Source: a virus
Lineage: Duplodnaviria > Heunggongvirae > Uroviricota > Caudoviricetes
Direction: 5' to 3' (one strand)
Virus record (IMG/VR): IMGVR_UViG_2695420793_000012
DNA length: 3,444 bases
In this document: positions 1 to 3,444 of the stretch, piece after piece
How the letters are laid out: every line of letters starts with the position of its first letter
Numbering within the stretch: position 1 is the stretch's first letter
Position numbers and translations under genes: made by a program
The notes under the pieces: model-generated
What the model was told of the DNA's origin: nothing
Databases searched by the model: none
The model's input: the letters and a program-made list of their open reading frames with translations, nothing else

Positions 1-393
1 ATCGTCTGCGCGGAAATGGACGAACAGTGGGGATACGTCGGGGCTAAATCGCGCCAGCGCTGGCTGTTTTACGCGTATGACAGGCTCCGGAAGACGGTTG
101 TTGCGCACGTATTCGGTGAACGCACTATGGCGACGCTGGGGCGTCTTATGAGCCTGCTGTCACCCTTTGACGTGGTGATATGGATGACGGATGGCTGGCC
201 GCTGTATGAATCCCGCCTGAAGGGAAAGCTGCACGTAATCAGCAAGCGATATACGCAGCGAATTGAGCGGCATAACCTGAATCTGAGGCAGCACCTGGCA
301 CGGCTGGGACGGAAGTCGCTGTCGTTTTCAAAATCGGTGGAGCTGCATGACAAAGTCATCGGGCATTATCTGAACATAAAACACTATCAATAA
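1..393 (+). CDS. insB: IS1 transposase InsB, C-terminal part (5'-partial at window edge)
   Basis: Frame 1 open from base 1 ([31 protein letters not shown]...[15 protein letters not shown]), stop TAA 391-393; matches recalled InsB C-terminal sequence. Confidence 0.95.
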
Positions 394-408
394 GTTGGAG
401 TCATTACC
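386..408. repeat. IS1 right terminal inverted repeat (about 23 bp)
   Basis: Reverse complement of 386-408 reads GGTAATGACTCCAACTTATTGAT, the canonical IS1 end. Confidence 0.9.
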
Positions 409-784
409 TATTTTTCTTACCTGATTCGGGTAATGTTGACCATTCACTGACCACATTATTAATGCCGGTATTCCGCCCGCTCTGAATAAAAATCCCACGC
501 TTTACCAGAACACTTTTTGCAGCAGAACACTTGTGCGGCAATATCCCGGTTAATTCGGAAAGTTGCTCGTTGCTAACCCAATCCAGTTTTTTATTAAAGC
601 CATATGTTTTGCGCATGACAGCCAGAAAGACCAGAAGCTGGTGCTGTGTTAATCCGGCCAGCATCACAGCTTCCAGCAACTCATTTGCAATGCGCGTATA
701 ACCATCATCGAGATCTGCCACGCGCGGCTCCTTTTGTGCCGCATCCGGCACTGGAAAATTGAATATCTCAGCAGTGTTTGCCAT
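404..784 (-). pseudogene. Lambda O-like replication initiator, N-terminal DNA-binding domain only (126 aa); C-terminal part removed by IS1, stop codon supplied by the IS1 end
   Basis: ATG at 784-782 with GGAGG 4 nt upstream; MANTAEIFNF...RVADLDDGYTRIANELLEA...LLVFLAVMRKTYGFNKK...SEWSTLPESGKKNR resembles recalled lambda O N-terminus (MTNTAKILNF...NVADLDDGYARL...LRKTYGWNK). Frame runs into the IS1 IR, stop TAA at 406-404. The listed ORF start at 874 would overlap the upstream gene. Confidence 0.8.
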
Positions 785-870
785 AATTCCTCCCGCAATG
801 AGTGTGTTACGATTTGCACCTGAAAGTCGGTTCTGTTCCAGCAGACCGGCTTTCGCCATTTCTGAACCTG

Positions 871-1410
871 TCATATCGCCCCCAGCATGGTAGTAACCAT
901 CGCCATCAATGGACCAGCCAGATCTGGGTCCACACGAAACATCGACACAATACCTTCACTAATTTCCTTCAGTTTCTGGTGGCGTGGTGCGTTGAGAATG
1001 ACAGCCTGTTTTGCCTCACTGAGTTCCTTTTCCATTTCAGCCAACCTAGCCATGAAGCTATCCTGCTCAACCAGGTAACCGCGATATTCCAGCGGTAGTA
1101 CCGCCAGAATTGCCGGGGTCAGTTCACGCACGTTATTTCGGTATTTTTCAGAATCGAATTTGTTATCGAGGAAGCGGAACAGCTTCTGGCGTGCACGGCT
1201 GACATCATCAGGGAAATCGATGGTGCCGCCGCCCTGCTCCCGATACTCATTCACAATGAGTGTGGCAACGACATCCTGATTATCTACAGCCGACCAGGCG
1301 CGGACGGCATCACGGATTTTTTCGTGGCCTGGCACCTGTTTTGTTTGAGAACGATTTATCACCGCAGTCGGGCTAAATCCGCTAGTCTGTTGGTATGTAA
1401 GTGGTTGCAT
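871..1410 (-). CDS. ydaT: YdaT-family protein (proposed functional analog of phage CII; historically annotated as putative toxin), 179 aa
   Basis: Strong RBS AAGGAG 6 nt upstream of ATG (1410-1408). Motifs NEYREQGGG and LTPAILAVLPLEYRGYL match recalled E. coli YdaT (EEYLRQGGG, LIPAILAILPRELRHRL). Sits in the cII position between cro-like and O-like genes. Confidence 0.75.
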   Translation of the reverse strand: MQPLTYQQTSGFSPTAVINRSQTKQVPGHEKIRDAVRAWSAVDNQDVVATLIVNEYREQGGGTIDFPDDVSRARQKLFRFLDNKFDSEKYRNNVRELTPAILAVLPLEYRGYLVEQDSFMARLAEMEKELSEAKQAVILNAPRHQKLKEISEGIVSMFRVDPDLAGPLMAMVTTMLGAI

Positions 1411-1429
1411 AATTGACTCCTTTAGTTTG

Positions 1430-1449
1430 AATTGACTGTTAAGTTGATT
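1430..1449 (+). promoter_or_regulatory. Direct repeats TTGACT-N6-TTGATT (AATTGACT also at 1411-1418); candidate binding site for the CII-like activator / PRE-like establishment promoter reading toward the repressor gene
   Basis: Seen in sequence: ttgactgttaagttgatt; position (cro/cII-analog junction) and direct-repeat-N6 geometry parallel lambda CII sites TTGC-N6-TTGC at PRE. Function is inferred. Confidence 0.25.
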
Positions 1450-1454
1450 GCTTA

Positions 1455-1467
1455 TTGTTAAAGAGCG
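1455..1467 (-). promoter_or_regulatory. boxA-like element (nutR-like position), CGCTCTTTAACAA on minus strand
   Basis: Reverse complement of 1455-1467 is CGCTCTTTAACAA, matching the boxA consensus CGCTCTT(T)A and the rrn boxA core GCTCTTTAACAA; lies 12 nt downstream of the cro-like stop. No convincing boxB hairpin follows. Confidence 0.4.
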
Positions 1468-1479
1468 TGAAATGGAAAT

Positions 1480-1710
1480 TTAAGCTGCGTTCTTTTCGGT
1501 GTGTGGAAACAACTTCGGAAGATCCGGGCGAATCTGGTATGCCTTCACTACTCCACCAGTAGCCGTAACAATGCTGCCGACATGTTCAGGGGATACCTTT
1601 GCTTTGTTGTGAAGCCACTTATAGACGGCCTGCTGTGAAACTTCGCAAGCAGCGCCCAGTTTCTTTTGTGAACCAACGATATTGATCGCTGTTTTGATAG
1701 CTGGGTTCAT
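1480..1710 (-). CDS. ydaS: Cro-like HTH regulator, YdaS family, 76 aa
   Basis: ATG 1710-1708 with GGAGG 5 nt upstream; divergent from the repressor gene; pattern IVGSQKKLGAACEVSQQAVYKW...ATGGVV...IRPDL resembles recalled YdaS (VVGGQSAMARLLGVS...W...ATRGEV...LRPDI). Confidence 0.75.
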   Translation of the reverse strand: MNPAIKTAINIVGSQKKLGAACEVSQQAVYKWLHNKAKVSPEHVGSIVTATGGVVKAYQIRPDLPKLFPHTEKNAA

Positions 1711-1737
1711 AACAACCTCCGTGGTTAATTTGAATCA

Positions 1738-1766
1738 AGATTAAAACTATGGTTGTTTTTAGTCAA
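1738..1766 (-). promoter_or_regulatory. PR-like sigma70 promoter for the cro-like operon (-35 TTGACT at 1766-1761, 17-bp spacer, -10 TAATCT at 1743-1738)
   Basis: Minus strand reads GGTTGTTGACTAAAAACAACCATAGTTTTAATCTTG; -35 overlaps the operator palindrome; near-identical to the module downstream of the repressor gene (2790-2823). Confidence 0.5.
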
Positions 1767-1773
1767 CAACCAT
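1749..1773. promoter_or_regulatory. Operator palindrome ATGGTTGTT-N7-AACAACCAT (OR-like); further half-sites AACAAC(C) at 1711-1717 and GGTTGT at 1798-1803
   Basis: Perfect 9-bp inverted-repeat arms seen directly in sequence, centred between the divergent cro-like and repressor genes and overlapping the PR -35. Confidence 0.55.
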
Positions 1774-1779
1774 TTTCGT

Positions 1780-1808
1780 TTGATGGAATAAAACCTTGGT
1801 TGTACATT
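1780..1808 (+). promoter_or_regulatory. PRM-like promoter candidate for the repressor gene (-35 TTGATG 1780-1785, 17-bp spacer, -10 TACATT 1803-1808), giving a leaderless or near-leaderless transcript
   Basis: Hexamers are weak matches; no usable Shine-Dalgarno before ATG 1815, as for lambda cI from PRM. Confidence 0.3.
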
Positions 1809-1814
1809 TGGACT

Positions 1815-2504
1815 ATGAAAACAACACTCTCAGAAAGACTTAAAGAAGCCAGATTAGCGCGAGGCCTTACACAAAAGGCGCTTGGGGATTTGGTCGGGGT
1901 TAGCCAGGCTGCTATTCAGAAAATCGAAACAGGGAAAGCTAATCAAACAACTAAAATCGTGGAGATCGCGAACGCTTTGGGTGTGCGCGCAGAATGGTTA
2001 TCTTCTGGCGTTGGAAATATGTCAGACAGTACAGTGCAACCAATACAATCAACTGTCAGCCATTCCAAATACTTCAAGATTGACGTTCTTGATATAGAAG
2101 TCAGTGCTGGGCCGGGAGTCATCAACCGTGAGTTTGTAGAAGTTCTACGCTCGGTTGAGTACTCGTTTGACGATGCTCGTCACATGTTCGATGGTAGGAA
2201 GGCGGAAAATATCCGCATCATTAACGTGCGTGGTGACAGCATGTCAGGAACGATCGAACCAGGTGATCTGCTGTTCGTTGATATCACAGTTAAATCTTTC
2301 GACGGTGATGGTATCTATGCGTTTCTGTACGACGACACAGCCCATGTAAAGCGCCTGCAAATGATGAAGGATAAGCTGCTGGTCATCTCTGATAACAAAA
2401 GCTACTCACCGTGGGACCCGATCGAGAAAGACGAGATGAACCGGGTGTTCATCTTCGGTAAGGTTATTGGGAGCATGCCGCAGACATATAGGAAGCATGG
2501 GTAG
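1815..2504 (+). CDS. cI-like phage repressor: N-terminal XRE-type HTH plus C-terminal LexA/S24 autopeptidase domain (229 aa from ATG 1815)
   Basis: HTH LTQKALGDLVGVSQAAIQKIE; putative Ala-Gly cleavage site in DIEVSAGPG; catalytic Ser in VRGDSMSGTIEPGDLLFVD and Lys in AHVKRL. The upstream in-frame ATG at 1749 lies inside the operator palindrome, so 1815 is preferred. Confidence 0.9.
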   Translation: MKTTLSERLKEARLARGLTQKALGDLVGVSQAAIQKIETGKANQTTKIVEIANALGVRAEWLSSGVGNMSDSTVQPIQSTVSHSKYFKIDVLDIEVSAGPGVINREFVEVLRSVEYSFDDARHMFDGRKAENIRIINVRGDSMSGTIEPGDLLFVDITVKSFDGDGIYAFLYDDTAHVKRLQMMKDKLLVISDNKSYSPWDPIEKDEMNRVFIFGKVIGSMPQTYRKHG

Positions 2505-2625
2505 TACCAATTAAAAATTATCAACTGGGCATTGTGCTCATTCAGTAAAGAACTAATTCCTATCTTTGCTCTAGGTAATAATATTAAACCACCGCAATAA
2601 TATCTTTACCTAACGGCGTAAGAAT

Positions 2626-2652
2626 CCCGGTCACCGTGCCGGGTTTTCTTTT
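2626..2652 (+). terminator. Intrinsic terminator downstream of the repressor gene
   Basis: GC stem CCCGG(2626-2630)/CCGGG(2639-2643) with short loop, followed by TTTTCTTTT (2644-2652). Confidence 0.6.
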
Positions 2653-2779
2653 GCCCTCCCCTCATCACACACACCGTTAAAAAAACCACCATAACCTCGC
2701 TTCAGTTATCGCTATGCGATTCAAGTCACAAAATAAATCCATCCTAAATACAACCAGTTATATCTAAAACAACCAATAA

Positions 2780-2823
2780 AACAACTTTTGTTGTTGACGA
2801 TAAAACAACTATAGTTTTAAATA
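2780..2823 (+). promoter_or_regulatory. PL/OL-like promoter-operator module: palindromes AACAAC-TTTT-GTTGTT (2780-2795) and GTTGTT-N8-AACAAC (2790-2809); -35 TTGACG 2794-2799; -10 TTAAAT/TAAATA 2817-2823
   Basis: GTTGTTGACGATAAAACAACTATAGTTTTAAATAAG is near-identical to the PR module on the opposite strand at 1733-1768; downstream of repressor gene and terminator, oriented away from the repressor as lambda PL is. Confidence 0.5.
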
Positions 2824-3254
2824 AGTTCATCGCAACAACACAACGATACGGCAACTACCTGATTCACCGTTGCGATGACCGCTTAGATCCGCAGTTTGAA
2901 TTTCAGCAGGCTTCGGGGAGTGCGAGGGGTGAAACGGACGCGTGAACGTCGGTGTGACCAGCTGAAATTAACTCAACATTTCATACCTTAGTCGCTTCAA
3001 CGAGGCGGCTTAGTTATGACAACCGGCGGCCATCCACCGCCTGAATACGCGCAGAAGTCTCTATATGTTCAGCAGCCCAGCTTACGGGCAGGAGTTTTTA
3101 TGGTTCATCAACATTATGGAACGCAGACCGTTAATCGAGGTGCGGTCATGCCAGGAATGCTGGTCAAACACAAAGATGGTACCTGGACTGCATCAGCTAA
3201 TTTACGCGGACGGCTTTATCTGCATCGCGGCATCGAGCGCACTTATACCCGTGA

Positions 3255-3444
3255 TTTGCTCGTGGAAGTTTTTCTCGACGGACGCGGTACTCCGTTACGA
3301 AGCGAGGCTGGGTATTTCCCGGCCTTTCTGTTATCCGAAAGATGCGCATCGACAGCAAGACATCATGGCTATCAGCTTGTCGTCGTGCAGGAATTGAAGA
3401 TTTCCGTTTCCATGACCTCAGACACACCTGGGCAAGCTGGCTGA
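3255..3444 (+). pseudogene. Tyrosine recombinase (phage integrase) 3' fragment, 5'-truncated and apparently frameshifted; continues past window end
   Basis: Frame 0 from 3255 reads ...[46 protein letters not shown], containing the integrase box II motif HDLRHT. In-frame stops at 3198 and 3252; no room for an N-terminal domain; possible continuation in frame 2 ([12 protein letters not shown], 3278-3313) implies a frameshift near 3305. Confidence 0.7.

Follow-up and report, generated by a model that had tools for sequence, protein, structure and literature searches.

The DNA analyzed here, a window of 3,444 nucleotides, contains a CI-type repressor gene, a PL-like promoter behind it and, at the far end, a C-terminal integrase fragment whose orientation, confirmed in our analysis, is that of the repressor gene and the promoter. 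This arrangement raises the question of what once lay between promoter and integrase and how it was lost. The initial annotation answered with one large deletion followed by point decay. Our results lead instead to the conclusion that the window is very probably the end nearest int of a lambdoid prophage of the DLP12 family (PhiR34_1-like), located at argU and disabled by deletions.

The window is 100% identical to a segment of Escherichia coli strain 165 (NZ_CP020509.1; locus L001, 5502-8945) at the argU/DLP12 prophage site, where the annotated gene order is nfrA, ybcH, envY, ompT, a truncated alpha/beta hydrolase gene, IS1, truncated O, ydaT, cro, cI, truncated int, argU and fimZ. The tRNA-Arg(UCU) gene, argU, was located by ARAGORN on the minus strand at L001 9152-9228 (3651-3727 in window numbering). 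The 3' region of argU is repeated exactly and in direct orientation over 47 bp, with one copy at L001 9150-9196 (window 3649-3695) and the far copy, between envY and ompT, at L001 2717-2763. The attachment junction and tRNA that had been expected shortly past the window end are thus present, about 205 bp beyond it. For DLP12, the cryptic K-12 prophage at argU-intD (Lindsey et al. 1989, as cited in PMC6379469), a 47-bp argU-like repeat is reported at the far end (PMC6379469). Since the repeat and the tRNA found here agree with that report, we assign the locus to the DLP12/argU prophage site. Both marks of the family are therefore seen, namely a prophage inserted at the tRNA-Arg(UCU) 3' end with a 47-bp direct repeat on its far side and intD-type integrase sequence beside argU (100% to K-12 intD over window 3339-3444). 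DLP12-like prophages, named for comparison at the outset, were the right choice. A duplicated core was also looked for at the ends of the PhiR34_1 record and none was seen, so the att site is not definable from those ends and was defined by the 47-bp repeat of strain 165.

The window up to the end of the PL leader contains the following features.

1-408, plus strand: right end of IS1, comprising the 3' part of insB and the terminal inverted repeat; annotated as IS1B in strain 165 (L001) and truncating O.

409-874, minus strand: 5' part of replication gene O, a pseudogene (PF04492 Phage_rep_O, E = 2.3e-34; partial replication protein in PGAP).

871-1410, minus strand: YdaT-domain gene at the position of lambda cII (PF06254, E = 8.5e-30; same protein accession in strain 64).

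1480-1710, minus strand: cro-like regulator gene, with annotation and protein accession as in intact relatives.

1815-2504, plus strand: intact gene for a CI-type repressor with HTH and S24 peptidase domain (WP_000858975.1 in strains 165, 64 and H3).

2626-2652, plus strand: terminator-like hairpin with a T run, 3' of cI and 5' of PL, seen in a consensus scan only.

2742-2822, plus strand: putative OL/PL-like promoter-operator, with TTGACG at 2794-2799, a 17-nt spacer, TTAAAT at 2817-2822, repeated AAAACAAC motifs and homology to the cro-side block.

2823-3099, plus strand: PL leader without an N-like open reading frame, according to ORF scan, annotation of relatives, Rfam and folding.

The 3' end of O was removed at the IS1 junction, and homology to intact phage begins at 409. 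The YdaT-domain gene, whose Pfam family (PF06254) bears the name 'toxin YdaT', is labelled cII in the PhiR34_1 record. The start of cI is ambiguous within 1749-1815: PGAP places it at 1815 (229 aa), and in the PhiR34_1 record the gene begins at the upstream ATG at 1749, giving 251 aa and an overlap with the operator region. Just after cI, positions 2505-2546 form an apparent insertion spot for accessory genes, occupied by the GevT/GevA toxin-antitoxin pair in PhiR47_2 and by two hypothetical genes in EC2641, and empty in the window and in PhiR34_1.

A consensus scan called no plus-strand promoter at PL, the sole call there being a minus-strand site at 2835-2808, and the PL assignment therefore rests on homology to the cro side. 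The block at 2742-2822 aligns over about 80 bp with the cro-side promoter/operator read on the other strand, including a 31-bp stretch at 90%, and the core common to both blocks is GTTGTTGAC(G/T)A..AAAACAAC(T/C)ATAGTTTTAA. This homology supports the original call of a PL-like promoter, and we accept the block as putative OL/PL.

The PL transcript had been expected to pass an N gene before reaching the recombination genes. Our scan found no plus-strand open reading frame longer than 31 aa in 2505-3015 or 2823-3099, no N gene is annotated there in intact relatives, and nothing at all is annotated between cI and kil in those relatives except the GevT/GevA insertion in PhiR47_2. The N gene is absent from this PhiR34_1-like phage group, and the expectation fails on intact relatives that have no N between PL and kil. 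Furthermore, a search of the whole window against Rfam (E <= 1) gave no match, so that no known nut, put or other RNA lies in the PL leader, and the leader, folded as 271 nt, had a z-score of -0.13 against shuffled sequences, indicating no unusual structure. The leader is 90-99% conserved across many lambdoid phages.

To the right of the leader, the origin of the DNA was mapped in blocks by comparing 2830-3444 with 5,426 complete E. coli genomes (megablast) and with phages (blastn). The interval splits into three, a kil side, a piece of orf60a and intD, which comprise the following features.

3100-3289, plus strand: kil, a cell-division inhibitor gene, first 63 of 68 codons (PHROG 294; RefSeq gene at 6271-6477 of L006, the argU prophage locus of strain 64).

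3100-3444, plus strand: chimeric open reading frame of 114 aa, made of Kil residues 1-63 and a 51-aa tail running through the orf60a piece and the int remnant.

3288-3289, no strand: junction 1, with TA microhomology, from the kil end (codon 63) to the orf60a interior, placed by three-way alignment and L006 coordinates.

3288-3340, plus strand: internal piece of orf60a/DUF1317, 53 bp, codons 17-33/34, 100% identical to 5001-5053 of the O157 allele (L005).

3339-3340, no strand: junction 2, with AA microhomology, from orf60a to intD codon 290, placed in the same way.

3339-3444, plus strand, continuing past the window to a stop at 3635: 3' remnant of intD, 100% identical to intD of strain 64 (L006), PhiR34_1 and K-12, in a single in-frame HSP (PF00589).

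For the open reading frame that starts at 3100, the PHROG match is family 294, "Kil protein for bacterial septation inhibition" (E = 1.5e-38, profile positions 4-81 of 83), and in intact relatives window 3100-3306 corresponds to a gene that RefSeq names "phage encoded cell division inhibitor protein". A native kil with its own stop is not present; the 51-aa out-of-frame tail takes the place of its 5 final codons and stop codon, and the stop of the chimeric frame is the final triplet of the window, 3442-3444. A gene for a cell division inhibitor is annotated in this stretch in one RefSeq record, NZ_CM188248.1. Neither open reading frame over 3016-3444 gave a match to Pfam. We also considered a frame-2 open reading frame at 3065-3397, which corresponds to a 'hypothetical protein' of PhiR34_1 (PV340559.1 4508-4741). 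Because it overlies kil in another frame with neither PHROG nor Pfam support, whereas the kil frame matches PHROG 294, we rejected it as a gene and regard the entry as a probable frame miscall in the PhiR34_1 record.

The middle block derives from orf60a, which lies just downstream of exo in relatives. The O157 gene that holds L005 5001-5053 matches PF07026 at E = 1.3e-38, whereas the identity of the 53-bp piece falls to 96% for strain 64 (L006 8362-8414) and to 93% for PhiR34_1. The full 60-aa DUF1317 domain (lambda orf60a family, PF07026) is not retained, since only these 53 bp are left. They are joined in frame to integrase codon 290, so that 17 DUF1317 residues run directly into KMRIDSK of the integrase. 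A terminator-like hairpin lies within the fragment at 3304-3336, with 9 pairs (6 of them G-C) and a weak T tract, as a match to consensus.

Integrase homology begins at 3339/3340, codon 290 of 387, and codons 290-387 are kept. When the 387-aa integrase of PhiR34_1 was compared by tblastn with the window extended to argU, a single HSP was obtained, covering about residues 287/288-387 at window 3330/3333-3632, ungapped and in one frame with 99/101 identities; all other matches had E >= 0.03, and none lay in 2830-3329. At the DNA level, identity to intD from 3339 is 100% over 314 bp for PhiR34_1 (3339-3652) and over 561 bp for strain 64 (3339-3899). The PF00589 match (E = 9.3e-21) is limited to profile positions 104-171 of 172. 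The HDLRHT box is encoded at 3411-3428, exactly where it had been placed, in the frame starting at 2832, and H314, R317 and Y349 are retained. Neither the complete catalytic set nor the N-terminal DNA-binding domains are present, as R215 (in ATGLR) and all N-terminal parts are gone; the roles of these four residues are those general to tyrosine recombinases, with R215 as the first catalytic Arg. With the sequence downstream of the window included, the fragment comes to only 100 integrase codons and not to a full-length in-frame integrase, in keeping with the original view of a truncated gene. PGAP already annotates a partial "site-specific integrase" lacking its N-terminus. With the DNA-binding domains and R215 missing, the piece is a pseudogene fragment and should be inactive.

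The same comparisons do not support the description of the remnant as frameshifted and degraded by point mutations. The retained part of the integrase contains no frameshift or premature stop, as judged by the ungapped HSP and the 100% identity of 3339-3652 to intact intD, and the segment to its left, window 409-3289, is 99.93% identical to intact phage PhiR34_1 (PV340559.1 7397-4517) and to the apparently intact argU prophage of strain 64 (L006 3580-6460). The proposed frame switch near 3305 does not exist, and the place given for it lies outside integrase sequence.

What is missing can be read against strain 64. At junction 1, L006 6461-8361 (1,901 bp) is gone, a stretch that begins with the 5 terminal codons of kil, spans gam, bet and exo and ends 48 nt into orf60a. 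At junction 2, L006 8415-10660 (2,246 bp) is gone; it comprises the remainder of orf60a, the DUF1382 gene, an orf61-like gene, traR, the DUF4222 gene and an HTH/xis-like fragment, and extends 867 nt into intD. These sizes are estimates, because a 53-bp piece identical to the O157 allele and only 96% and 93% identical to the intact comparators indicates that the true ancestor was a slightly different mosaic. The deletion postulated between PL and the integrase thus stands insofar as the genes for recombination and excision have been lost, along with 75% of int at its 5' side; it has two breakpoints flanking the 53-bp piece, however, and not one. Nor is the distance from promoter to integrase fragment about 400 bp, as first estimated, since about 515 bp separate the fragment from the PL -10 element (near 2822), and the gap is occupied by the leader of about 270 nt, 63 of the 68 kil codons and the 53 bp of orf60a/DUF1317. 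No IS ends or long repeats were found at either junction. From the sequence of the breakpoints, the deletions probably arose by illegitimate recombination at the level of microhomology, in two events or in one complex event.

The identical double junction is present in 26 of the 5,426 complete E. coli genomes, all 26 copies being 100% identical over 3230-3400 and occupying one chromosomal site. As these are 26 independent complete assemblies, it is unlikely that the junctions are assembly errors. No genome with junction 1 or junction 2 alone was found among the matches listed from the 5,426 genomes, and in the absence of such an intermediate two events are not separable from one complex event. 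EC2641 was considered as a single-junction intermediate and rejected, since its breakpoints differ.

The IS1/O junction (window 408/409) is found in 19-20 genomes. Strain H3 (NZ_CP010167.1; L009) has the same int-side scar, O and P at full length, and a prophage longer by about 15 kb, including a SIR2-family gene, ybcN, ninE, ybcO, rusA, quuD, a porin gene and late-gene fragments. Compared with H3, strain 165 carries IS1 with 15,027 bp missing beside it, from mid-O to the middle of the alpha/beta hydrolase gene, and the two are otherwise 99.99-100% identical. Because the int-side scar occurs in more genomes (26) than the IS1/O junction, the scar most likely preceded the IS1-linked deletion. 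A sub-lineage later lost the further 15 kb beside IS1, leaving the 3.2-kb immunity island seen in the window. The SIR2-family gene of H3 (L009 13837-15768) lies between P and ybcN, where ren, emrE and ybcK are found in PhiR34_1, strain 64 and PhiR47_2, and may represent a defence-gene swap.

Comparison with known prophages places the scar in context. The argU prophage of strain 64 and PhiR34_1 (PV340559.1), for which a literature search found no paper, share the gene order of the window, with the same 99.93% identity throughout O-ydaT-cro-cI-PL-kil and 100% identity at the int 3' end. Unlike the window, both have, from kil to att, the genes gam, bet, exo, orf60a, orf63/DUF1382, orf61, traR and a DUF4222 gene, followed by one for a full integrase of 387 aa. 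DLP12 of K-12 has the same integration site, the 47-bp argU 3' att repeat and an identical 3' part of intD, and both it and the prophage described here are lambdoid, defective and eroded by deletions and IS elements. In contrast to the window, K-12 has a full-length intD and no match to the cI-PL-kil part. In the lineage of the window, cI, cro, PL and kil survive, and xis is gone together with 75% of int, whereas DLP12 of K-12 probably keeps xisD and has lost its immunity region. Strain EC2641 (L007, NZ_JALDNN010000001.1 4871-5945) likewise shows decay of the PL operon at the argU site, with a 3' int fragment beside argU, but there one breakpoint links gam with DUF1317 and another links DUF1382 with an int remnant of 234 bp, and the immunity region is a different one. 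Since both breakpoints and immunity region differ, EC2641 decayed independently, and loss of the kil-int interval is therefore recurrent at argU.

The lambda PL operon (N, cIII, kil, gam, bet, exo, xis, int) is similar to that of the intact relatives in that an order of kil-gam-bet-exo-orf60a and on to xis-int stands behind a repressor-controlled leftward promoter. It differs in that the relatives have no N gene or recognisable nut/put RNA between PL and kil and encode a YdaT-domain protein at the cII position, as the Rac prophage presumably also does.

These results bear on the other ways in which the closeness of cI, PL and int could be explained. The initial annotation envisaged a single large deletion that left PL about 400 bp from an integrase fragment starting near 3200, which later acquired stops and a frameshift. 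The stops at 3198 (TAA) and 3252 (TGA) do share the frame of HDLRHT, as stated, but they are positioned in kil DNA read out of frame and lie outside the integrase. Similarly, "WVFPG" (3309-3323) gave its reader the impression of a common integrase motif, a resemblance that probably led to the upstream extension of the fragment, whereas it is DUF1317's own sequence. The supposed upstream integrase residues are encoded by 3100-3289, which is kil, and 3288-3340, which is DUF1317; tblastn similarity to integrase begins only at about 3330 in any frame and DNA identity at 3339, and the remnant itself matches intact intD at 100%. We therefore consider a single deletion with later decay highly improbable. 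Even less credible is a native compact arrangement, in which repressor and int would be neighbors in a small integrative element that had lost nothing. The occurrence of the arrangement in 26 genomes could be cited in its favor, yet the copies are 100% identical at one chromosomal site, int lacks 289 codons, orf60a is represented by 53 bp from mid-gene and kil has no stop. Moreover, the intact relatives at the same site hold the missing 4.1 kb, with repressor and int about that far apart and not natively adjacent.

A harder choice concerns the number of events. Instead of sequential deletions, one complex event may have produced both junctions, for instance template switching in the course of replication or repair that captured the 53 bp as filler; we regard this as possible though unlikely. 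It is favored by the lack of a one-junction genome among the matches listed and by the 2-bp microhomology at both junctions, but missing intermediates are weak evidence for a lineage that is small and clonal, and the 53 bp keep their native orientation and order, as sequential deletions would leave them. Whether by two events or by one, kil codon 63 was joined to the orf60a interior with the removal of 1,901 bp, and the 53-bp orf60a piece was joined in frame to intD codon 290 with the removal of 2,246 bp.

The prophage so altered would be unable to excise, since its integrase piece is predicted to be inactive and xis is gone. Because its CI, Cro and YdaT-domain proteins share accessions with those of an intact prophage, repression of PL and homoimmunity are plausible. 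The intact cI, cro and OR/OL-PL module thus probably still represses PL and may confer immunity to homoimmune phages. Upon derepression, PL would be expected to transcribe the Kil fusion frame and to continue towards argU. We also considered that the cI-cro-PL-Kil-fusion island is a selected module that combines CI immunity to PhiR34_1-like phages with an SOS-inducible Kil variant bearing the 51-aa tail. This we find very doubtful; if it were true, the kil-int losses in this lineage and in EC2641 would reflect selection for grounding with immunity kept.

Overall, the locus is an ordinary prophage deletion scar, its partial integrase already flagged by PGAP. The main value of the results lies in correct annotation, in that the remnant is resolved into kil and two gene fragments, one of orf60a and one of int. 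Additionally, the locus provides one more case of the stepwise grounding of prophages at the argU hotspot, and the exact double junction could mark the lineage of 26 genomes in which it is found.
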